NCBI RefSeq assembly: GCF_004010195.1
Contig: NC_057734.1
Location: 25,236,382 to 25,300,381, forward strand
Direction: 5' to 3'
Source of the DNA: Chiloscyllium plagiosum
Taxonomy: Eukaryota
Length of the DNA stretch: 64,000 nucleotides
Below are positions 4,346 through 62,751 of this stretch, piece after piece. Position 1 is the first letter of the stretch. Every line of letters begins with the position of its first letter. The notes under the pieces are model-generated. The model did no database searches, was not told where the DNA came from, and saw only the letters and a list, made by a program, of their open reading frames with translations. The position numbers were made by a program, and so were the translations under genes.

Positions 4346-5368
4346 GCTGAAAATGTGTTGCTGGAACAGCGCAGCAGGTCAGGCAGCATTCAGGGAACAG
4401 GAGAATCGACGTTTCGGGCATAAGCCCTTCTTCAGGAATGAGGAAAGTGAGTCCAGCAGGCTAAGATAAAAGGTAGGGAGGAGGGACTTGGGGGAGGGGT
4501 GTTGGAAANNNNNNNNNNNNNNNNNNNNNNNNNNNNNNNNNNNNNNNNNNNNNNNNNNNNNNNNNNNNNNNNNNNNNNNNNNNNNNNNNNNNNNNNNNNN
4601 NNNNNNNNNNNNNNNNNNNNNNNNNNNNNNNNNNNNNNNNNNNNNNNNNNNNNNNNNNNNNNNNNNNNNNNNNNNNNNNNNNNNNNNNNNNNNNNNNNNN
4701 NNNNNNNNNNNNNNNNNNNNNNNNNNNNNNNNNNNNNNNNNNNNNNNNNNNNNNNNNNNNNNNNNNNNNNNNNNNNNNNNNNNNNNNNNNNNNNNNNNNN
4801 NNNNNNNNNNNNNNNNNNNNNNNNNNNNNNNNNNNNNNNNNNNNNNNNNNNNNNNNNNNNNNNNNNNNNNNNNNNNNNNNNNNNNNNNNNNNNNNNNNNN
4901 NNNNNNNNNNNNNNNNNNNNNNNNNNNNNNNNNNNNNNNNNNNNNNNNNNNNNNNNNNNNNNNNNNNNNNNNNNNNNNNNNNNNNNNNNNNNNNNNNNNN
5001 NNNNNNNNNNNNNNNNNNNNNNNNNNNNNNNNNNNNNNNNNNNNNNNNNNNNNNNNNNNNNNNNNNNNNNNNNNNNNNNNNNNNNNNNNNNNNNNNNNNN
5101 NNNNNNNNNNNNNNNNNNNNNNNNNNNNNNNNNNNNNNNNNNNNNNNNNNNNNNNNNNNNNNNNNNNNNNNNNNNNNNNNNNNNNNNNNNNNNNNNNNNN
5201 NNNNNNNNNNNNNNNNNNNNNNNNNNNNNNNNNNNNNNNNNNNNNNNNNNNNNTTATGCCCGAAACGTCGATTCTCCTGTTCCCTGGATGCTGCCTGACC
5301 TGCTGCGCTGTTCCAGCAACACATTTTCAGCTCTGATCTCCAGCATCTGCAGACCTCACTTTCTCCTC
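4346..5368. mobile_element. Young Penelope-like insertion with inverted termini (interior is an assembly gap)
   Basis: Near-perfect inverted pLTR arms on both sides of the gap. Intact hammerhead motif on the minus strand at 4405-4438. 14-bp TSD atggacaaaagaga at 4332-4345 and 5369-5382. Confidence 0.85.
4509..5253. other. Assembly gap (N run)
   Basis: Run of N. Confidence 1.
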
Positions 5369-7631: not shown

Positions 7632-8500
7632 AGAGTTAAAAAGTGTGGCGCTGGAAAAGCACAGCCAGTCAGGCAGCATCTGAGGAGCAGGAGAGTCAAC
7701 ATTTTGAGCATAAGGAATTTTGTGTGTGTGCGCGTGAGAGTGAGTGAATGAGATAAATGGAGGGGGTGGGGTTGGGGGGGGGGGAGATAAATAGCTAGGA
7801 ATGCAGTGGGTGGATGAAGATGGGGTGATGGTGATAGGTCAGTTGAAGATGGAGTGGACAGATGGGAAGTAAGATGGACAGATAAGGCACTTCAAGAGGG
7901 CTGTGCCGAGTTGGAGGGTTGGATCTGGGATAAGGTGGGGGAGGGGAGATGAGGAACCTGGTCAAATCAACATTGATACCGTGTGGTTGAATGGTCCAAA
8001 GGCAGAAGATGAGGTGTTCTTCCTCCAGTCATCGGATGGCTAGGATTTGGTGGTGGAGGCAGCCCAGGACTTGCATGTCCTTGGCAGAATGGGAGGGGGA
8101 TTGAAGTATTCAGCCACAGGACAGTGGGATTGTTTGGTTTGCGTGTCCCAGAGATGTTCCCTGAAACATTCCGCAAGTTGGCATCCTGTCTCCCCGATGT
8201 AGAGGAGACCACATAGAGAGCAATGGACACAAGTAGATGAGGTGTTTGGAGGTGCTGGAAAATCGCTGCCGGATGTGGAAGGATCCTCTGGGGCCTTGGA
8301 TGGAGGTGAGGAGGTAGGTGTGGGTGCAGGTTATACACCTCTCGCAGTGGCAAGGAAAGTGCCAGGAATGGAGGGTGAGTTGGTGAAGGGCGTGGACCTA
8401 ACGTGGGAGTCACAGAAGGAATGGTCTCTGTGGAATGCTGAAAGAGGTAGGGAGAGAAATACATCTCTGCTGGTGGGGTCTGATTGTCGATGGCAGAAAT
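7632..8500 (-). mobile_element. Penelope-like element 3' fragment (GIY-YIG endonuclease remnants plus pLTR)
   Basis: Reverse complement is homologous to 37130-38015 (the LYIGETG...FREHL and EEHLIF segments). Contains a pyrimidine-rich 3' region and a pLTR arm at 7632-7712. Confidence 0.85.
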
Positions 8501-10048
8501 TGATCCTTGCACACCACCAACCTCTGGATACAATGCATCATCTTCCACCATTTCCTCCACCTACACTCTCACTGACAGTTGAAATTTGTGATAATGAACC
8601 AATCGCTTATCTTTGACAATGTGACAGTGTGTCAGTCACGGCACAAGTCTTGTCTGGCTTCAACCCACCAATCAGCATAGCCCCAATATGAACAGAAGCT
8701 CCTTTTCTGATGTGGTTTTTATGTGGATCTAGAAATGTGTGCCAGTTCGAAAACCACTGACTTTTTCCTTGTAAAGGGTAAAGATTTTTAAATAAACGGA
8801 ATAAATACTCACAACCTCCCTGTAAAAGTTTGATCATTTAAAATAGATTTTTATTCTAGACTGATACTCTCTCTGTGATAGAGGAAACAGACTAAAGAAA
8901 CTCACCCAGCCAGTATTCCTTTTGGCACTTACAATGAATCCATTATACACTGCGTAATGAAATCAATGTGGATATTAAATAACAGATTAAACAAAAAAGT
9001 GCAAGTCCCGCTTAGCGACTCAAACTATGCACGGTGGCTAAAAGGCTGAATCCCAAATCAGATGGAGATTCTGCAAATGCAGTTTAGGCCCAGTACTTCC
9101 AAACCGCTTTATGTTAAGCCGAGAATGACTTTCTAACCGAAACTCTTTTAGGCCCGAGTCGACAGTAAACTACGGGGGGGGGGGGGTCAACTCGGAGGAA
9201 AACTGGCTAGTCACTTAAAATTTCTTTGCAAAAGCGTCTTCAAGCATTCATTACTCCGAAGTGCCATGAACACACAGCCTCAGCCATTTACAGAATAACT
9301 CATTGTTAAGAGGTAAGGTTTCTCCTTTGCTCACCCCTCCCCCATACTACCCATGCAGCAAACAAGGCAAAGCTGCCTTTCGAACAGGATCATATTTAAT
9401 CGTTTCCTCTTGGCCAAAATTGTATGCGCGCACTTGAGGCTTTATACTACCTTACGCCAAACATTTAACAACTGCTGTACTTTGTGCAACAGTAGTGGTA
9501 AGCATTGCCACGCTCTTATAAAAGTTATTTTACTGTATAACATTACATTCTGCTGTGGACACGCTGTTGAAAAACTAGGACCAATAAAGCCATTCTAAAG
9601 CATGAAACGCTTATATAACGAAATGAATATTGAAATATTTCAAGCAACAAAACGTGTCGATTTGCGTGAGATCAGTATTTCAAAATATATGTGGACTCAA
9701 AGTTCCAAAAATGCATGTTAAGTGCTCTAAAGGATGAGGTTTAGTATGTCTTACGGAGCATTACTTCGTGGCCTCGGTAACGGATAACTGGTTTCGTAAA
9801 CAGTCTGGATTTGTAATGCCACATGCTTCAAGTTTAAAAGTAGCAGCACCAGTCAGGTTTAAAAAAAATACAGTCTGCTGGCAGCTGTCCTAAAAGCATG
9901 AAGAGCCACCATCATTATTCAGCACAACAGAGCCTGGTTTCAGCTTAACTACTTCAGGCTTATACATTGTTTCCCAAGAAGAGCTTTCTAGTTTTTTTTC
10001 TAAATGAAAATGCTCCTACTGTGTTCACAATCAAAGCTGAAAGCTGAC

Positions 10049-10096
10049 CTGCTCTGGGTCTGAGTCATACTCCTCATCATCTGCACTCAGGGACAT
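10049..10096 (-). CDS. KDM2B: Coding part of the alternative first exon of the KDM2B short (JmjC-less) isoform
   Basis: GCC ATG TCC CTG AGT GCA GAT GAT GAG GAG TAT GAC TCA GAC CCA GAG CAG|gtcagc = MSLSADDEEYDSDPEQ. It resembles the recalled mammalian short-form N-terminus MAMSVSAEDDDYESEPDQ. The phase-0 donor is compatible with the next (CxxC) exon outside the window, and it lies in the expected intron. Confidence 0.88.
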
Positions 10097-10105
10097 GGCC
10101 AAATC

Positions 10106-10171
10106 TCAGTCTGGGCCCAGCCAGAAACAAACTGACATGGCTGGACTGCTGTAGTAACGAGCCTCCACCAT
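10106..10171 (-). other. Upstream ORF (MVEARYYSSPAMSVCFWLGPD*; internal ATG at 10138) in frame with the short-isoform CDS
   Basis: ATG at 10171 and GCCATG at 10138 are both in frame. They end at TGA 10108-10106, 9 nt before the main ATG at 10096. Whether they are in the 5'UTR depends on the unknown TSS. Confidence 0.45.
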
Positions 10172-11087
10172 AAACCCAGCTTCCACACTCAAGACTCATC
10201 AATATTCATGAGGGAAGGTCAGGATGGGGTTGAACCGTTTCAGTTGACCAATCAAAAATAAGCAGATGCATTATTTTGAAAAACAGACAATAGAGCTGCT
10301 GCTGGTTGAGATTACAGCCCACAGTCAGCAAGAGGACTGACATTGTAAGGGCACACACGCGATACATTCACAAATCACCCTGCTTTTCCCCAGCCACTTA
10401 CACATCTAACAATGACTAACACTAAATCCAAAGTATGTAATGCTCTAGGCAAATACAATGAGTGAAGATGCAATCAGAGAGCGTTTACAGTATTATTTAT
10501 GATTATCTTTAGTAAGCACTCCCCCGCCGGCTCAGCCTACAAATAAACATTGCGGAGTGCAGGGCTCGTTAGTCGAAACAGAAACCCATCGTCTTCAAGG
10601 TTCAGTTTAAAGGACATGACCAAAATCGAAGTGAACTTTTCTTTTGCTTCAGTTAATTACCAGCATAAAATAAAGCCTCTGTGTCTGGGCAGCAGCTCAT
10701 TGATACCTCCTGACAAAACAATAAGAGGAACAGCCAAAATTTCTTTATTCTTTGGTGTGTAAAGAAAATCAGCTCCATTTTAGATTTTTCTTTTGCAGAT
10801 CACAAAATTAATACCTGCATTTTTAGAACGCCATTAATATGGGTAGCCATAAGCATCTATGTAAGAGAGGAAGAAGTCAGTTTTTGGTGATGTTCAATAT
10901 AGGGCAATAGTGTTTGGAACACTTCAAGAATACTTGTTACTTTCCAAATATGCCATGGTATCTGTTTCAACCATCTGAAATTGGGCCTCAGTGTTGGATC
11001 TCAAAGTACAGTGCATGTGTTCCAGGTCATAGTGAGGACTGAAGGAACAGCCTTCTGATCCTGAGGCAAAAACAAACTGGCATTGAA

Positions 11088-11565
11088 CACTTACCTTCCC
11101 CTGCAACCGCAAGATATGCAAAACTTGCACCAACACCTCCCCCCTTATTTTCCTCCAAGGCCCCAAGGGATCCTTCCATATCCGCCACAAATTCACCTGC
11201 ACCTCCACACACATCATTCACTGCATCCGCTGCACCTGATGTAGCCTCCTCTATATTGGGGAGACAGGCCACCTACTTGCGGAACGTTTCCGAGAACACC
11301 TCTGGGACACCCGCACCAACCAATCCAACCACCCCATGGCGCAACACTTCAACTCCCCCTCCCACTCCACCAAGGACATGCAGGTCCTTGGACCCCTCCA
11401 TCGCCAGACCATAGCAATACGACGGCTGGAGGAAGAGCACCTCATCTTCCGCCGAGGAATAACGTCGATTCTCCTGCTCCTTGGATGCTGCCTGACCTGC
11501 TGCGCTTTTCCAGCAACACATTTTCAGCTCTGATCTCCAGCATCTGCAGTTCTCACTTTCTCCAT
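11088..11565 (+). mobile_element. Penelope-like (probably Neptune-type) GIY-YIG endonuclease fragment
   Basis: Translates TFPCNRKICKTC...FTCTSTHIIHCIRCT*CSLLYIGETGHLLAERFREHL...AQHFNSPSH...RRLEEEHLIFR, followed by a pLTR tail. Confidence 0.88.
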
Positions 11566-11669
11566 TGAACACTCCAACCAAACATTATCACTGACATTAA
11601 ACACTGTTAATTAGGCGACAGGGGGAGAAGCATGACAGGGCGAATTAAGTTAAATATGGAAACCACAAG

Positions 11670-13363: not shown

Positions 13364-13702
13364 AACAATCTGACTCCAAAGACCAACATATTTCCATGAG
13401 CTCTTTCAAATGCAAAGCCAATCCTTAGAAGAGTATAAAAGAAGTAGGAGTATACTTAAGAGGGAAATCAGGAGGGCAAAACGGGGATATGAGATAGCTT
13501 TGGCAAATAGAATTAAGGAGAATCCAAACGGAACAATCTGACTCCAAAGACCAACATATTTCCATGAGCTATTTCAAATGCAAAGCCAATCCTTAGAAGA
13601 GTATAAAAAAAGAAGTAGGAGTATACTTAAGAGGGAAATCAGGAGGGCAAAACGGGGACATGAGATAGCTTTGGCAAATAGAATTAAGGAGAATCCAAAT
13701 GG
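13364..13702 (+). repeat. Tandem duplication, period 168 bp, spanning the flank/LINE 5' junction
   Basis: aacaatctgactccaaagaccaac...gaatccaaa(c/t)gg occurs at 13364 and 13532, with a few substitutions and an A-run length difference. Confidence 0.92.
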
Positions 13703-15190
13703 TTTTTACAAATATATTAAGGACAAAAGGGTAACTAGGGAGAGAATAGGGCCCCTCAAAGACCAGCAAGGCGGCCTTTTGTTTAAGAAGGGTGGTAAAG
13801 ACAAGCCAGGGAACTACAGACCGGTGAGCCTGACCTCAGTGGTGGGCAAGTTGTTGGAGGGAATCCTGAGAAACAGGATGTACATGTATTTGGAAAGGCA
13901 AGGACTGATTTGGGATAGTCAACATGGCTTTGTGTGTGGGAAATCATGTCTCACAAACTTGATTGAGTTTTTTGAAGAAGTAACAAAGAAGATTGATGAG
14001 GGCAGAACAGTAGATGTGACCTATATGGACTTCAGTAATGCATTTCACAAGGTTCCCCGTGGGAGACTGATTAGCAAGGTTAAATCTCATGGAATACAGG
14101 GAGAACTAGCCATCTGGATACAGAACTGGCTCAAAGGTAGAAGACAGAGGGTGGTGGTGGAGGATTGTTTTTCAGACTGGAGGCCTGTGACCAGTGGAGT
14201 GCCACAAGGATTGGTGTCGGATCTTCTACTTTTTGACATTTACATAAATGATTTGGATGCGAGCATAAGGGGTACAGTGAGAAAGTTTGCAGAGGACACC
14301 AAAAGTATAGTGGACAGCGAAGAGGGTTACCTCAGATTACAACTGGATCTAGACCAGATGGGCCAATGGGCTGAGAAGTGGCAGATGGAGTTTAATTCAG
14401 ATAAATGCGAGGTGCTGCATTTTGGGAAAACAAATCTTAGCAGGACTTATACACTTAATGGTCCTAGAGAGTGTTGCTGAACAAAGAGACCTTGGAGTGC
14501 AGGTTCATAGCTCCTTGAAAGTGGAGTCACAGGTAGATAGGATAGTGAAGAAGGCGTTTGGTATGCTTTCCTTTATTGGACAGAGTATTGAGTACAGGAA
14601 TTGGGAGGTCATGCTGCGGCTGTACTGGACATTGGTTAAGCCACTGTTGGAATATTGCGTGCAATTCTGGTCTCCTTCTTATCGGAAAGATGTTATGAAA
14701 CTTGAAAGGGTTCAGAAAAGATTTATTAGGATGTTGCCAAGGTTGGAGGATTTGAGCTATAGGGAGAGGCTGAACAGGCTGGGGCTGTTTTCCCTGGAGC
14801 ATCGGAGGCTGAGGGGTCACCTTATAAAGGTTTACAAAATTATGAGGGGCATGGATAGGATAAATAGGGAAAGTCTTTTCCCTGGGGTCCGGGAGTCCAG
14901 AACTAGAGGGCATAGCTTTAGGGTGAGAGGGAAAATATATAAAAAAGACTTAAGGGGCAACTTTTTCACGCAGAGGGTGGCACGCGTATGGAATGAGCTG
15001 CCAAAGGAAGTGGTGGAGGCTGGTACAATTGCAACATTTAAGAGGCATTTGGATAGGTATACGAATAGGAAGGGTGTAGAGGGATATGGGCCGGGTGCTG
15101 GCAGGTGGGTTGGGATATCTGGTCGGCATGGACAGGTTGGACCGAAGGGTCTGTTTCCATGCCGTACATCCCTATGACTCTACGACTCTC
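13580..15190 (+). mobile_element. HER1/CR1-type LINE, 5'-truncated ORF2 (RT) with internal deletion and frameshift
   Basis: ORFs 13578..14480 and 14422..15177 give NYRPVSLTSVVGKLLE, QHGF...SCLTNLIEFFE, SGVPQG, KFAEDTK, WQMEFNSDKC and FFTQRV. The 3' tail is shared with the HE1 SINE. Confidence 0.95.
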
Positions 15191-25441: not shown

Positions 25442-27200
25442 AGAGTCATAAGAGTAATAGAGATGTACAGCATGGAAACAGACCCTTTGGTTCAACCCAT
25501 TCATGCTGACCAGATATCCCAACCCAATCTAGTTTCACCTGCCAGCACCCGGCCCATATCCCTCAAAACCCTTCCTATTCATATACACATCCAAATATCT
25601 TTTAAATGTTGCAATTGTACCAGCCTCCACCACTTTCTCTGACAGCTCATTCCATACACGTACCACCCTCTGTGTGAAAACGTTACTCCTTAGGTATCTT
25701 TTATATCTTTCCCCTCTCACCCTAAACCTATGCCCTCTAGTTCTGGACTCCCCGACCCCAGGGAAAAGACTTTGTCTATTTACCCTATCCATGCCCCTCA
25801 TAATTTTGTAAACCTCTATATGGTCACCCCTTAGCCTCTGACGCTCCAGGGAAAAAAGCCCCAGCCTGTTCAGCCTCTCCCTACAGCTCCAACCCTTGTA
25901 AATCTTTTCTGAACCCTTTCAAGTTTCACAACAACTTTCTGTTAAGAAGGAGATCAGAATTGCACACAATATTCCAACAGTGATCTAACCAATGTTCTGT
26001 ACAGCCTCAACGTGACCTCCCAACTCCTGTACTCAATACTCTGACCAATAAAAGAAAGCATACCAAATGCCTTCTTCACTATCCTATCTACCTGCGACTC
26101 CACTTTCAAGGAGCTATAAACCTGCACTCCAAGGTCTCTTTCTTCAGCAACACTCCCTAGCACCTTGCCATTAAGTGTATAAGTCCTGCTAAGATATGCT
26201 TTCCCAAAATGCAGCACCTTACATTTATCTGAATTAAACTCCATCTGCCACTTCTCAGCCCATTGGCCCATCTGGTCAAGATCCTGTTGTAATCTGAGGT
26301 AATCCTCTTCGCTGTCCACTACACCTCCAATTTTGGTGTCATCTGTAAACTTACTAACTGTACCTCTTATACTCGCATCCAAATCATTTATGTAAATGCC
26401 AAAAAGTAGAGGACCCAGCACTGAGTCTTGTGGCACTCCACTGGTCACAGGCCTCCAGTCTGGAAAACAACCCTCTACCACCACCCTCTGTCTTCTACCT
26501 TTGAGCCAGTTCTGTATCCAAATGGCTAGTTCTCCCTATTCCATGAGATCTAACTTTGCTAATCAGTCTCCCATGGGGAACCTTGTTGAACGCCTTACCA
26601 TATAGATCACATCTACCTCTCTGCCCGCATCAATCCTCTTTGTTACTTCTTCAAAAAACTCAATCAAGTTTGTGAGACATGATTTCCCACACACAAAGCC
26701 CAATGTTGACTATCCCTAATCAGTCCTTGCCTTTCCAAATACATGTACATCCTGTCCCTCAGGATTCCCTCCAACAACTGGCCTACTACCGAGGTCAGGC
26801 ACACCGATCTATACTTCCCCGGCTTGTCCTTACCGCCCTTCTTAAACAGTGGCACCACGTTTGCCAACCCCCAGTCTTCTGGCACCTCACCTGTGACTAT
26901 TGATGATACAAATATCTCAGCAAGAGGCCCAGCAATCACTTCTCGAGCTTCCCACAGAGTTCTCGGGTACACCTGATCAGGTCCTGGGGATTTATCCACC
27001 TTTATAGATTTCAAGACATACAGCACTTTCTCCTCTGTAATATGGACATTTTGCAAGGTGTCACCATCTATTTCGCTACTTTCTATATCCTTTTCCACAG
27101 TAAATACTCGTTTGCTATCTCCCACATTTTCTGTGGCTCCACACAAAGGCCACCTTGCTGATCTTTGAGGGGCCCTATTCTCTCCCAAGTTACACTTTTT
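25442..27200 (-). mobile_element. HER1/CR1-type LINE, 5'-truncated
   Basis: ORFs 25535..25801, 25954..26484 and 26664..27188 encode RT pieces (KSPGPDQVYPR, SGVPQDSVLGPLLF, KFTDDTKIGG). Same family as 13580-15190. Confidence 0.95.
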
Positions 27201-27709
27201 GCCAGCTAAAGAATTCTAACATTAGGCGTAACAACATTACTGATCAAATAATCAACATTTTTTTTGTCCAATTAATTGGCATTTAACATGGTGCGGCTGA
27301 CAAATGTTACTTGAATACAGTATCCATTGTGAAAAGCTTCAAGAAGAAAGATCAGAAAGTCTGGGAAAACATCACGAAAGATCAGGGGTGGACCAGAAGC
27401 CTGACCATGTCTTTGTCATTTTGTGATATGATTAGCTTAATTGAAAATACATGAAGGCAAGCTTGAATTGTGTAAGATGCTGTACCAGAGAGCCAATTAT
27501 AGAGGGATAAGTCAGCACCGCTGACCAAAAGTAATCAGGGTTGGGGCAGTGGATGGTACATGTGTGCATGCGCTCTAAGTTTAAATTGTACAAGTTAAGA
27601 CATTCTGAATCTTTGTGTGCCTTTTGTTATGCTGTAACCGATGTGTAAATCACGATGAAGGTCACCTGAAACCACACCGTGACTTGGACTTTCATTCAAA
27701 ATGAGATCT

Positions 27710-35499: not shown

Positions 35500-37095
35500 A
35501 CTCAGTTTGAGGGCAAAAAAGTAATAAAGAGAGAAAAGCAAACTAGCACAGAATATTAAAACAGATAGCAAAAATCTGTTATAAGCATACAAAAGGGAAG
35601 ACAGTAGCTAAAGTAACTGTTGGTCCACTGAAGGGCAAGATTGGGGAGCTAATAGTAGGGAAATTAGGGAGACACTAATCAATGTTTTGTATCAATTTTC
35701 ACAGTGGAGGATAAAATCTTAATAATGACAGGTAGTGCAGAAGGTGATAGAAAGAGAGGAGCCTACAATAAACATCATCAGTAGGAAAGAGGAACCTTTC
35801 CGACTGAAGGTAGACAAGCCCCAGGGCCTGATGATCCACGTCCTAGGGTCTTCAATAAAGTGATAGCAGAGAATGTGGATCTACTGGTATGTTCCAAAAT
35901 TCCCCTCAATGTGAGACAAGTTACAATGAATTGGACAATGTTCATACAATACCCTTATTCAAAAAGGGAAAAACACAGAAATAAGCCAGTTAGTTTCACA
36001 TCATCATTGGGACATATGAAGTATTAAATATTCATTATTAAGGAAGTAATTATAGTACATTTACACAGTTAGAATGAATCCATCAGAGTCAGCATGGTTT
36101 TATGAAAGGTAAATTATGTTTAACTAAGTTTCAAGAGTTCTTTGAAGATTTAACAAGCAAAGTGGATAACGGATATCCTGTAGATGTAGTAGATCAGGAC
36201 TTCCAGACAGAATTTGCAAATGTGCCATACAAAGATTAATACACAAGATAAGATCACATGGAGCTGGGGTCATTCTTTGGTTTGGTTAGAGGATTGGCTA
36301 ACAAACAGAAAGCAGAGGATCAGGATAAATGGATCTTTTTCTGGTTGGCAAGATGCAACCAGTGGGGTGCCACAGGGATTGATCCTTGGGCCCCAATTCT
36401 TTACAATCGAAGAGAAAAATGGACCAAATTGGGCAGATAGAGTTTTATGCGGATAAATGTGAGGTTATCCATTTTGGTCAGAAGAATAGAAAGGCAATTA
36501 GAAAGAAATGTCAGAATGCCAGTGCAGAGAGATCTGGGTGTCCCAGTATATGATTCTCAGAAAATTAGAGTGCAGGTATAGCAGATAATAAGGAAGAGTA
36601 ATCGAATTTTCACTTGTACCTCTTTCAATTTGGTCTATTGCATTCTTTGCTCCCAATGTGTTCTCCTCTATACTGGACAGACAAAACGATTGTCTCTCTT
36701 TCTCTCCCTCCCCACTCTCTCATCACCTTTTTCCTCTCCTCTTCCCCTTTGCTACCCTTTTCTCCTGTTTTCCATTTTGCCTCTGCTTCACCCATCCCCC
36801 ACATATTTTGTCACATAGCACAGTGTTCAGCCTTGGAGATTTCCACTTTTGGGGCAATTTAGAACAAGAGGTCACAAGTTTTAGACTAAGGGGTAGCAGA
36901 CTTAAAAGAGAGGAGGATAAATCACCTCTCTCAAACGGCAGTGAATCTTTGGAATTCACTTCCCTAATGTGGTGAACGGTTGGACATTGAGTGAATTTGA
37001 GGGGATAGACAGTTTTTTAATTAGTAACAGGTTAAAGGAGTTGAGACTAGCCATGATTGTGTTGAATGGGGAGCAGGGTTGAGAGCCTGAATTCG
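35500..37095 (+). mobile_element. Decayed CR1 LINE (with a small Penelope fragment at about 36615-36820)
   Basis: ORF 36214..36456 gives WLEDWLTNRKQRIRINGSFSGWQDATSGVPQGLILGP. cagcatggttttatgaaagg (QHGF); 3' tail gaatggggagcagg. Confidence 0.8.
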
Positions 37096-38013
37096 AAGAG
37101 TGTGCTGCTGGAAAAGCATAGCCAGTCAACCCCCCTGGTCTTCACCTTCCACCCCATGAAACTCCAGATACACCACATCATCCTCCACCATTTCCACCAC
37201 CTACAAACAAAGCCTACTAGCAAAGATATATTTCTCTCTCCACTCCTATCTGTGTTTCGGAGAGACCATTCCCCCCGCTATGCCCTTGTCAGGTCCATGC
37301 CCCCCACCAACCTACCTCCCCCTGCCATTGCAAGAAGAGCAAAACCTGTGCCCACACCTCCCCCTGACCTCCATACAAGGCCCAAAAGGATCCTTCCACA
37401 TCCAGCAGAAATTTACTTGCAGTTCCACACACGTCATCTACTGCATCCGTTGCACCCGATGTGGTCTCCTCTACGTTGGAGAGCCAGGACGCCAACTTGT
37501 AAGTCGTTTCAGAGAACATCTCTGGCACACCCACACTAACCAACCTCAGTGCCCTGTAGCTGCAAACTTTAACTCCCCCTCCTACTCTGCCAAGGACATG
37601 CAGGTCCTGGGTCTCTTGCATCGCCAAACCCTAACCACCCAAAGCCTGGAGGAAGAACATCTCATCTTCCATCTTGGGACTCTCCAACCACACAGGATCA
37701 ATGTAGATTTCACCAGGTTCCCCATTTCCCCTCTCCCCACCTTATCCCCGTCCCAACCTTCCAACTTGAACGGTCTTATCTGTCCATCTTCCTTCCTACC
37801 TATCTGCTCCACCCTCCTCTCTGACCTATCAATTTCACCCCCACCCTCATCTACCTACAGCTTTCCCAGCTACCTCCCCCCACCAAGCCCCATCCCCTTT
37901 GGCCACAAACCTCACTGATGATGGGCTTATGCCAGAAACGTCGACTGTCCTGTTCCTCAGATGCTGCCCGTCTTCGACTCTGATCTCCAACATCTGCAGT
38001 CCTCACTTTCTCC
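37096..38013 (+). mobile_element. Penelope-like element 3' part with GIY-YIG ORF remnant, pLTR and a short inverted 5' arm
   Basis: ORF 37280..37918 contains VIYCIRCTRCGLLYVGEPGRQLVSRFREH...EEEHLIFHLGTLQPHRINVDF. Hammerhead-like ctgatgatgggcttatgccagaaacgtc at 37915-37942. Inserted in the CR1 tail. Confidence 0.9.
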
Positions 38014-46253: not shown

Positions 46254-46729
46254 CTTCATATCCTCTAGAAGGGCATAAGGATCTTCTATCCCTTCAGGGA
46301 CACATTTTTTATTCTCTGGCAAAGACTCCAGTTTTTCCACAAGTGCTTTTAATCCTTTCAACTCAAATTCTGTAAGGTGAATCCATTTATTAGATCCTTC
46401 AGATGCTGGCTGAGATGGGTCAGGAGACCCACTTGGTGTTTTTGGACAGTCTGTCAGCATTGGTGACTTAGTGCTGTCATCTGAATCATTGGACAAAGTC
46501 CGCTTTAAACGCTTTGTCATTTTCGGTGTCTTTCCAGAGCTTTCATTTCCTTCTGAATGTGCACTGTTAGGAGATGGCGAATCATCACCAAATGCTTTTG
46601 TGCTTTGAAGGCTCATTTTATCTCTCGACTCATCTTTCTCCTCCTTGATTCGTACATCAGAAGATTCTTCATCCATATCTAGACGGGAATCTGATGAAGG
46701 ACTCTCTGTATTTGGTTTCTTCTCTGTAT
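46254..46729 (-). CDS. KDM2B: KDM2B coding exon (acidic/Ser-rich linker plus conserved [34 protein letters not shown] segment), 476 nt
   Basis: ttttcag|AT ACA GAG AAG...ATG AAG|gttagt. Contains most of ORF 46221..46676. The motifs [14 protein letters not shown] and [19 protein letters not shown] match KDM2B rather than KDM2A. Phase 1 to 0. Confidence 0.96.
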
Positions 46730-48959: not shown

Positions 48960-49086
48960 CAATTAACATTGATTCCCTCTGGTATTGTTTGGTGAGATAA
49001 GACCTTTTCGTCAAACAGAACACATATCTTTCCAGGACATACCAGCACATTTCATAGTAGAAAGGATAGCGGAACTTGGCATTAAC
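48960..49086 (-). CDS. KDM2B: KDM2B coding exon (post-JmjC helical region), 127 nt
   Basis: tttttcag|GTT AAT GCC AAG TTC CGC...TTA ATT G|gtaagt = [42 protein letters not shown](D). Phase 0 to 1. Confidence 0.97.
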
Positions 49087-53610: not shown

Positions 53611-54629
53611 AAAATAACTTTTTTTTTAAAAAAGGGGTTTATCATCTCACCAATTTTTGCAACCTCTCTCTCCTTCGGATATTGACTTCACGATAGAATA
53701 TGGGTCCTCAAGACAATATGATTGAAGTCAGCAGCCTACTACCTTGGGGTAAACTTTGAACACAATCTTGCCAGCACCTTAATACAATTCATCAAACGAA
53801 GACAATAAAAATATCGATTTAATGATCATATTCTGCAGTCAAAGGTGAAGGTTAAGCAGTTATTTAAGAACATTTGTGATTTCAACACAAACATTAAAAC
53901 AAAGTTTCAACTTGTTTCCCTACCCTATTTGAAGTCCAGAAAAATTATACTCCCACTTCAACACTAATTAACACCCTTGAAGTTATGTCTCCCAAATTGT
54001 ACAGCGAGTTTTACAATATTCCTCTGATGGTATGAACCTTTCATAAGCGTGATGGTCTAAACTTTGTACAATCATAACAACTTTAAGATTTCTGTACCAA
54101 ACTCTGTTGGCTTGGAAACATCACAAACTTTAAACAAAAATCACTGCTTCTACAATGGCTGGTTTTCTCTAAATGAACTAAAATCTGAGAACAGAATTTA
54201 AAAACTTGATTTTGAACTAAACTTTTGATTCTTCTCAACTAAACTTCTAGCCTTTTTTGAACTGAATGGAAATAAAAAATAATGATTTAATGTGTTTATA
54301 CTGCCTGTCATCTTTTCTACCAATATACCAAGTTTTCTTGAATCTTTGATTACAGTCACATATCTTCTTGGAACTGAAGCATTTAGGTCACTGTTCCAGA
54401 ATGACCTTCTGACCTTTTTATTAAACCCCTCCAAAAACTAATCCACATTCATTTGCCTTTTTTAAAACAATATAAAAATTCAAAAAAGCAGCAATAATAT
54501 GTTTTATACATCTTTCAACACACTAACAAGATTAGCATAATACTGGTGATGAAATCAAGTTTAAGATTTTGTTTTTGTCAATTCACTCTTTCGTAAGAGA
54601 TATGATGGTAACACATAACTTATTTTTTT

Positions 54630-54904
54630 TAGATTAGATTACTTACAGTGTGGAAACAGGCCCTTCGGCCCAACAAGTCCACACCGCCCCGCCGAAGCGC
54701 AACCCACCCATACCCCTACATGTACCCCTTACCTAACATTACGGGCAATTTAGCATGGCCAATTCACCTGACCTGCACATCTTTGGACTGAGAGAGGAAA
54801 CCGGAGCACCCGGAGGAAACCCACGCAGACACGGGGAGAACGTGCAAACTCCACACAGACAGTCGCCTGAGGCGGGAATTGAACCCGGGTCTCTGGCGCT
54901 GTGA
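54630..54904 (-). mobile_element. HE1-type SINE, young, 5'-truncated
   Basis: Nearly identical to the reverse complement of 12440-12725; CpGs retained. Confidence 0.93.
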
Positions 54905-55801
54905 TGATCTCCCATGTCCAAGACTTTCTTCCCTTGGTTTTAATGTTGAGCAAGAATTCTGGATTAGTCAAACAGACTATAACTATGAATTCTGAGCTAG
55001 ACCAATCAAAGTTAAGAATTTGAGATTTTTGACAGGCACAAGGAATGGAAATGCACATTGTACTGTTTTATGGTACCTCCAACAAGCTTTCAGATGCTGT
55101 TATTTTATTACAGTAATTACTACTATTTCTAGAGCCATAACTCAGTTTTCTGAATTACTGCAGCATGCAACAATTTCTGCACATCAATTCTCACAAACAA
55201 AAAATGACTAGTTTTTATAAATTATGATTGTTATGATCTACTTCTAACCAGAATGGACTCAATTATAAGGGAAGGCATTATATGCACATATTCAAAGCAA
55301 AATTTATTATGGAATTATCTACCTGAATTTGACGAAAGGGAAAAACGGTAAAATTTTTCTTTCATTTACATTTCTTGATGTACTGGGTGAAACTTACAAG
55401 AATGGGAGTCTTAAAAAAACTTTGCAGTTTTCCAAGCATTTGCAAGATCATTTACAAGTACTGTCAACCTTTGAAAAAAAATGCAATTTTCAGGATGCAC
55501 AACATAATCAAATTTACAAAGAAATGTTTAATTCATGTATAAAAGATGAAGATTGTAACTTGTGCTTTTAACGGCTTTATGCTAGGAATGAAAATTTACA
55601 TAGGTTCAGACCTCAAATTTGATTTCAAAATGTCGGAATGATCCAGCCTTTTTCACTTTGAGTATGAAAATCCTTATGAATAAACTAAAAGCAAGTTCTG
55701 AGATCCTTAGCTACTGTACATTAGTTTCATAGATTCCAGAGCTCATAGATAATAAGTACCATTATTTAGACTTTTAAATAATGACGCCTCGCTATCTTGA
55801 G

Positions 55802-56564
55802 GAGAAAGTGAGGACTGCAGATGCTGGAGATCAGAGCTGCAAATGTGTTGCTGGAAAAGTGCAGCAGGTCAGGCAGCATCCAAGGAACAGGAGAATCGAC
55901 GTTTCGGGCATAAACCCTTCTTCAGGAATGAGGAAAGTGTGTCCAGCAGGCTAAGATAAAAGGTAGGGAGGAGGGACTTGGGGGAGGGGCGTTGGAAACG
56001 TGATAGGTGGAAGCAAGTCAAGGTGAGGGTGATAGGCCAGAGTGGGGTGGGGGCAGAGAGGTCAGGAAGAAGATNNNNNNNNNNNNNNNNNNNNNNNNNN
56101 NNNNNNNNNNNNNNNNNNNNNNNNNNNNNNNNNNNNNNNNNNNNNNNNNNNNNNNNNNNNNNNNNNNNNNNNNNNNNNNNNNNNNNNNNNNNNNNNNNNN
56201 NNNNNNNNNNNNNNNNNNNNNNNNNNNNNNNNNNNNNNNNNNNNNNNNNNNNNNNNNNNNNNNNNNNNNNNNNNNNNNNNNNNNNNNNNNNNNNNNNNNN
56301 NNNNNNNNNNNNNNNNNNNNNNNNNNNNNNNNNNNNNNNNNNNNNNNNNNNNNNNNNNNNNNNNNNNNNNNNNNNNNNGAGGGAGTCACGGAGGGAGTGG
56401 TCTTTTCGGAATGCTGATAGGGGAGGGGAGGGAAATATATCCCTGGTGGTGGGGTCCGTTTGGAGGTGGCGGAAATGATGGCGGATGATACGTTGTACAT
56501 GGAGGTTGGTGGGGTGGTAGGTGAGAACCAGTGGGGTTCTGTCCAACCAGTGGCAGTTGGAGGG
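55802..56564 (-). mobile_element. Young Penelope-like element 3' part (gap inside)
   Basis: ORF 55869..56546 gives DRTPLVLTYHPTNLHVQRIIRHHFRHLQTDPTTRDIFPSPPLSAFRKDHSLRDSL. Intact minus-strand hammerhead at 55895-55928. TSD gctatcttgag (55791-55801, 56565-56575). Confidence 0.9.
56075..56378. other. Assembly gap (N run)
   Basis: Run of N. Confidence 1.
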
Positions 56565-60188: not shown

Positions 60189-60304
60189 CCGAGTTCGATC
60201 CTCAATTCCATAGATATGAAGTTGCATAGGAATATTAAAGCTGTGCAGGAAATTTCCACCAAAAACCAACGTATCTACTGGAGTGTATACGGCATGAATC
60301 CATC
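60189..60304 (-). CDS. KDM2B: KDM2B coding exon (JmjC, contains the WIH Fe(II)-ligand histidine), 116 nt
   Basis: atttag|GA TGG ATT CAT GCC...ACT CGG|gtaagc = (G)[38 protein letters not shown]. Phase 1 to 0, in frame with both neighbours. Confidence 0.97.
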
Positions 60305-62597: not shown

Positions 62598-62751
62598 CTG
62601 AAGGGATCAAAAATGTATATCCTTGTTTTAACTCAATCCGTTGGCATCCGTCCACTCTGTCCCCAAGGAAAATATCACCTTGTTTTCCCGACAGAACCCA
62701 CTCTTCATAAATCTCCAGATTGTGCGAAGTCGGGGGAACTAACCAGAATAC
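62598..62751 (-). CDS. KDM2B: KDM2B coding exon (JmjC domain; equivalent to human exon ~8), 154 nt
   Basis: Reverse complement reads ...ctcgttcag|GTA TTC TGG...CCT TCA G|gtaacag = [51 protein letters not shown](G). This closely matches the recalled KDM2B JmjC sequence. Canonical AG/GT, phase 0 to phase 1. Confidence 0.96.

Follow-up and report, generated by a model that had tools for sequence, protein, structure and literature searches.

In mammals, the short form of KDM2B (KDM2B-SF, or FBXL10-2) starts at exon 1b, which lies within intron 11 of the gene and serves as an alternative first exon (PMC7000146; PMC4888662), and recruits PRC1.1 (10.1101/561571; PMC7000146). Deleting this promoter together with its exon in the mouse abolishes the short protein and causes craniofacial and neural-tube defects, and of the two isoforms it is the short one that, when lost, produces the stronger phenotype (PMC4888662). 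Whether a short form exists outside mammals was left undecided by a 2018 review, which names fly and worm (PMC7000146). Among open-access records of PubMed Central and bioRxiv, none that we found treated the short form beyond mammals, its conservation or its leader; the records listed under the term 'KDM2B-SF' all concern mammalian work. The available parts of PMC10912607 and PMC9916924 contain nothing on the conservation of the short form, and PMC7588095 had no match for our terms on it. We therefore asked whether a shark KDM2B gene carries this first exon, whether the exon is used, and how old the arrangement is.

The KDM2B locus of Chiloscyllium plagiosum

We analyzed 64,000 nucleotides of the bamboo shark Chiloscyllium plagiosum (contig NC_057734.1, positions 25,236,382 to 25,300,381), hereafter the window. 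Its minus strand is shark KDM2B: a tblastn search of the reference long form P0001 (C. plagiosum KDM2B isoform X1) against the window located five long-form coding exons.

62598..62751, minus strand: 154-nt exon of the JmjC region
60189..60304, minus strand: 116-nt exon of the JmjC region
48960..49086, minus strand: 127-nt exon
46254..46729, minus strand: 476-nt exon, 100% identical to P0001 over 154 aa
21599..21685, minus strand: 87-nt exon, the last that is specific to the long form (P0001 residues 549-577), with a phase-0 donor that competes with exon 1b for one acceptor

From residue 578 onward, where P0001 continues into a basic linker and the CxxC finger, there was no tblastn match within the window, so the linker/CxxC exon must lie beyond position 1 or in a gap. 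Two runs of N are present (4509-5253 and 56075-56378). The introns are largely filled by broken retroelement-like frames (13542-15177, 25535-27215, 7967-8616, 11043-11584 and 37047-37918), and the interval 8566-11088 had no match elsewhere within the window. In several mammalian long-form models (P0090-P0094, P0108 and P0120), the 87-nt exon is joined straight to the PHD exon and the CxxC exon is skipped.

Exon 1b carries a 16-codon acidic frame

Exon 1b (10190-10049) sits within 8566-11088, in the intron between the 87-nt exon and the exon preceding the CxxC finger.

10049..10096, minus strand: coding part of exon 1b, 16 codons MSLSADDEEYDSDPEQ, net charge -7
10043..10048, minus strand: phase-0 splice donor GTCAGC
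10100..10102, minus strand: TTG at the site of the bony-vertebrate first Met, from the sequence and its alignment

The original prediction, made from the sequence alone, had proposed a 16-codon frame with a phase-0 GT donor 11.5 kb past the 87-nt exon; the frame is present, and the 87-nt donor lies 11,503 nt upstream of its ATG. We trained a profile on 10 short-form peptides from species other than sharks; it gave this site 39.3 bits, whereas no non-overlapping site in the 61,652 windows of the six frames exceeded 3.8 bits. A cruder scan, which asked for a purine at -3, an ATG followed by 10-25 open codons and a GT, and an Asp/Glu share of 40% or more, returned two matches on the minus strand, this one and another at 8551, and none on the plus strand.

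The start codon, at 10096, stands in the context TTGGCC-ATG-T, with G at -3. Upstream of it, TTG (10102-10100) occupies the place of the first mammalian Met, exactly as the prediction had it, and for that reason translation had been proposed to begin either at the second Met or at a near-cognate codon. The second Met suffices: it has G at -3, and the basking-shark model described below begins at the same residue, so near-cognate initiation at TTG is unnecessary. A lizard model (P0196) has the first Met only.

The exon is the orthologue of mammalian exon 1b

Among the 482 proteins compared, 53 start with a peptide of this class, and they come from shark, teleosts, lizards, birds, a marsupial and placentals. 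Identity to the 16 shark residues is complete in the basking shark (16/16), 12-14/16 in six rows of ray-finned fish, 9-10/16 in lizards and birds, 7/16 in opossum and 9/16, ungapped, in the placentals human and mouse. The mammalian short-form N-terminus given in the prediction matches human, mouse and whale proteins, which continue into the same downstream exon (short forms compared: mouse NP_001365794.1, human XP_047285679.1). Shark and mammalian short forms thus have in common the intron, the phase, the downstream exon, an alignable acidic peptide and a product that lacks JmjC. They differ in that the shark TTG leaves 16 codons rather than 18, in that the shark promoter region retains CpG at only ~40% GC, and in that function has been shown in mouse only. 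Together, these comparisons confirm the shark exon as the orthologue of mammalian exon 1b.

A shark short form, of which the prediction makes no mention, is already present in automatic annotation. KDM2B isoform X19 of the basking shark (XP_078410330.1, here P0219; 737 aa) is an automatic RefSeq model from another shark order that begins with the same 16 residues and then runs into the linker and CxxC finger. Its Pfam list includes CxxC, PHD and F-box as well as LRR, and no JmjC family; the corresponding downstream exons of the bamboo shark are deduced from P0001. No short form appeared among the listed members of four shark long-form clusters (15 of 184 for the largest). With the skink model region as query, 3 proteins were found among 13 candidates. 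The short forms of teleost kdm2ba and kdm2bb (P0231, P0290, P0300, P0257 and P0232) are identical to the shark peptide at 13-14 of 16 positions and, unlike the shark, retain both Mets; where their models expose it, they also have the leader block considered below.

How strongly the peptide is constrained can be judged against the long form. Relative to a primate long form, the 476-nt exon is identical at 93/158 residues (59%), the 87-nt exon at 76% and the JmjC region at 82-87% (42/51 and 33/38 in the folded exons), and the peptide matches mammals at 9/16 (56%). The peptide is therefore about as conserved as the unstructured 476-nt exon and less so than the folded exons, which indicates ordinary purifying selection and not extreme constraint. 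The suggestion that the peptide is under selection holds to this extent, and the proposed conserved tyrosine is not invariant, being Phe in two of five bird short forms. In birds (P0225-P0229 and P0332), a Glu-Pro/Gly-Pro repeat stretches the exon peptide to 30 residues.

Exon 1b is spliced to the linker/CxxC exon

We turned to contigs from sequencing runs, of which 18 were listed, 14 guessed to be RNA (with small word shares) and four aligned to 8700-11050. In three of these four runs (X1, X2 and X9, from organisms A, B and D and three studies), one contig each matches exon 1b without gaps at 99% or more and departs from the genome exactly at 10049. The loose ends, reverse-complemented, read by hand and compared with P0001 residues 578-587, encode P0001 from residue 578 onward, that is, the sequence that follows the 87-nt exon, and the join is in frame. 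The X9 contig (3,839 nt) begins at 10170 and is unbroken across the junction. The X2 contig halts 28 nt beyond it, as would be expected of a 31-letter graph in which the 87-nt exon shares only the final AG at the same acceptor. In the fourth run (X3), exon 1b is not covered, and three short unspliced intronic contigs (8752-8935, 10348-10501 and 10878-11050; pre-mRNA or DNA) are evidence neither way; an X3 contig carries a T>C difference at 10963. Coming from runs guessed to be RNA, the contigs are evidence of the joined form and not of start, strand or level. They show that exon 1b is spliced, in phase 0, to the basic-linker/CxxC exon, the junction that the prediction had singled out for checking.

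Toward the 5' side, the contigs extend to 10190 (X1), 10187 (X2) and 10170 (X9) without an upstream loose end, a weak hint that this is a first exon. Exon 1b could also be read as an internal, frame-breaking (poison) cassette that the long transcript would include by way of a weak AG, for instance the one at 10187 or at 10140. The X2 end directly follows the AG at 10187, the X1 contig has three unaligned letters past 10190, and a paddlefish fragment model enters the exon at the place matching 10140. In addition, three RefSeq long-form models of surfperch kdm2bb (P0260, P0315 and P0317) hold the exon internally and in frame, combining JmjC with the acidic peptide, either as a real hybrid exon or as a model artefact. 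Such a cassette is nevertheless very unlikely in the shark. X1 passes 10187 and all three contigs pass 10140, again with no loose end upstream; the 12 AG sites between 10300 and 10097 have only 41-65% pyrimidines; a conserved peptide that begins with Met makes no sense in an out-of-frame exon; and the mouse long transcript lacks this exon (PMC4888662). Moreover, from each of the 12 AG sites a stop is reached in the long-form frame, so that in-frame internal use of exon 1b is impossible in this shark.

A processed copy (retrogene) elsewhere, or DNA, as the source of the spliced contigs, with the intronic site silent, is more improbable still. The four aligned runs are RNA by guess, which leaves some room for this idea; on the other hand, the contigs agree with the window at 99% or more right up to the GT, a second shark order has kept the peptide intact and identical (16/16), and a processed copy would itself presuppose a spliced RNA. 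That an acidic frame arose here by chance, in a long intron, is an idea for which the second short acidic frame with GT at 8551 might be cited; it is refuted by the profile scores, the spliced contigs and the identical RefSeq start in the basking shark.

We therefore regard the site, with a probability of about 0.93, as KDM2B exon 1b, the orthologue of the mammalian exon, with a leader of at least 94 nt, 16 codons and a phase-0 splice to the linker/CxxC exon, under a putative internal promoter.

A candidate internal promoter

The exon had originally been drawn from 10049 to 10260. The part from 10049 to 10190 has contig support, and 10191-10260 is probably promoter. Transcription would start near 10190, from a putative internal promoter of its own, and the CpG peak and CCAAT match listed here are located as such a promoter would predict.

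9101..9800, strand not assigned: CpG-retaining stretch inside the next intron, observed/expected 0.83-0.84, GC ~40%
10245..10254, plus strand: CCAAT-box match, a candidate promoter element, 55-64 nt upstream of 10190, where the farthest-reaching contig ends

The CpG observed/expected ratio peaks at 0.84 over 9101-9700, the highest among 612 overlapping 600-nt windows (median 0.26) and also the highest among 61 bins of 1 kb. Such a peak is what would be expected if the site were unmethylated in the germ line, and 9101-9800 is a probable non-methylated island of the putative internal promoter. A second, lower CpG bump (54301-55100, observed/expected at most 0.64) falls within the intron flanked by the 116-nt and 127-nt exons. 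The CCAAT-box match is notable for its position alone, the motif being unenriched in the window (3 matches in 64 kb, 5.05 expected). Just upstream of the furthest contig end lies a near-palindrome, ATGAATATTGAT (10198-10209), which resembles a POU-factor site.

The leader contains an upstream ORF

10097..10190, minus strand: 5' leader of at least 94 nt, from the extent of the contigs
10106..10138, minus strand: upstream ORF of 10 codons, ATG at 10138 to TGA at 10106, in frame with the main ATG, its stop 9 nt before it
10169..10171, minus strand: another upstream ATG of this frame, which would yield 21 codons before the shared stop, without a purine at -3

The upstream ORF, which the original prediction had missed, starts in the context GCC-ATG-TC, the same as that of the main ATG. 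It would probably lower translation, and the main frame would then rely on leaky scanning.

A block of the leader is common to shark and ray-finned fish, being found in ten fish models (five distinct rows, from paddlefish to percomorphs). These gene models translate their leader in another frame. Comparison with 39 nt of the shark by back-translation gave 10 positions forced to be identical, 12 compatible and 17 different. The forced-identical positions cluster around the upstream ATG, and the stop's GA is among them, while the A of the ATG and the T of the TGA fall on wobble positions of the fish models and are unreadable there. This comparison marks the block as conserved DNA; its conservation specifically as an upstream ORF has about even odds.

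What the short form and its acidic tail may do

Assembled from these elements, the short transcription unit would work as follows. Transcription would begin near 10190, driven by a promoter inside the gene, in the intron that follows the 87-nt exon, and exon 1b would supply the start codon and an acidic tail (-7) placed directly before the basic linker (+11). The product, predicted at ~745 aa, would by analogy with mouse bind non-methylated CpG DNA and bring in PRC1.1 without H3K36 demethylation.

For the tail itself we weighed three roles. Ranked most likely, though short of an even chance, is an electrostatic damping of the linker's contact with DNA that CK2 could tune at Ser4 and Ser12. Both serines fit the CK2 consensus, and Ser12 is lost in opossum. 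Somewhat doubtful is a role as a mere start, or N-terminal processing tag. Less likely again is a putative H2A-H2B cap-anchor motif. Proteins with that motif (APLF, Anp32E, Spt16 and YL1) place an acidic cap three positions before an aromatic anchor within an acidic run, and the shark D7/Y10 spacing equals that of APLF E473/Y476 (PMC6101569), though any acidic run with a Tyr would fit. The Tyr-to-Phe changes in birds suit a hydrophobic anchor better than a phosphosite. A required phosphotyrosine is ruled out by the Phe of P0225, P0229 and P0363. An AlphaFold model of P0219, built on a 10-row alignment, gave pLDDT below 50 over residues 1-347; as this span includes the known CxxC and PHD folds, the model is uninformative on disorder of the tail.

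Age of the exon and the origin of FBXL19

The original prediction held that the two-promoter design predates the split between sharks and bony vertebrates. An orthologous, spliced exon in a shark supports this, and the age so given is probably an understatement. When we searched 50% cluster representatives with P0219, 149 new proteins were found, 43 of them with the KDM2-type CxxC pattern. Across their 83,469 windows, four of the five best matches to the peptide profile are placed ahead of the basic linker, on its N-terminal side. They are a teleost-like short form (33.7 bits), P0394 (19.3, at position 1), P0337 (13.7, at position 2) and P0363 (12.0). The remaining one is a poly-acidic decoy at 13.8 bits, so the scores of P0337 and P0363 are not decisive without their position. 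Among the invertebrate-like representatives no like peptide scored, which in a set of 50% cluster representatives does not imply absence.

P0394 belongs with FBXL19, a JmjC-less paralogue that, like the short form, has CxxC, PHD and F-box as well as LRR domains. Its best solved-structure match is FBXL19 (242 bits, versus 229 for KDM2B), it groups with FBXL19-like rows at 100/95, and a tree with P0394 inside KDM2B was rejected at p-AU 0.003, for a group named after the tree had been seen and with 20% of columns filled. It begins with an acidic peptide like that of the short form; this peptide has no aromatic residue, and two other members of the FBXL19 clade (P0343 and P0370) lack the peptide. 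P0337 and P0363, tentatively read as lamprey-like and hagfish-like from position and composition, form a pair at 100/99 and are equidistant from KDM2B and FBXL19 over the CxxC-PHD region. The pair falls outside jawed-vertebrate KDM2B: one tree leaves its place open, and the other sets it next to FBXL19 at 94/96, a position toward which a shared bias in GC-rich residues may pull it. These two may be stand-alone genes rather than isoforms.

In either case, a like peptide occurs on each side of the split between KDM2B and FBXL19, which suggests an exon that predates the duplication and an FBXL19 derived from the short transcription unit. Tentatively, at rather less than even odds, the short-form promoter and acidic exon would have arisen in the one vertebrate gene ancestral to both KDM2B and FBXL19, at a time when the jawed and jawless lineages had not yet parted; FBXL19 would be the short unit left after a duplicate lost its JmjC half; and the 10-codon upstream ORF, in place since at least the split of sharks and bony fish, would cap translationally the dose of a JmjC-less PRC1.1 recruiter. 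In smelt, all six named kdm2ba models listed (P0231 and P0290-P0294, X1 included) are 638-784 aa long, and this copy may have kept the short unit only, in parallel to FBXL19.

A resemblance of FBXL19 to the short forms has been noted before (PMC3685328), and we found no description of a shared first exon in open-access PubMed Central or bioRxiv. FBXL19 is a separate gene whose product is reported to recruit CDK-Mediator and not PRC1 (PMC5997449). KDM2A-SF also lacks JmjC and comes from an intronic promoter, but one in intron 12 of a different gene (PMC7000146). No like peptide scored in the representatives taken as KDM2A, a weak test on unnamed long or partial rows.

Significance

The shark exon puts the probable two-promoter design of KDM2B at least as far back as the last ancestor common to all jawed vertebrates, a result that is useful and unsurprising, a shark short form being already in RefSeq. 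KDM2B is tied to a human neurodevelopmental disorder. No protein sequence other than the 16-18 residues encoded by exon 1b is peculiar to the short form, which makes them the natural target of isoform-specific tests. The upstream ORF, if truly conserved, would provide a further point of control, at translation, and a region in which non-coding variants might be sought, and a shared first exon, if true, would explain the origin of FBXL19.
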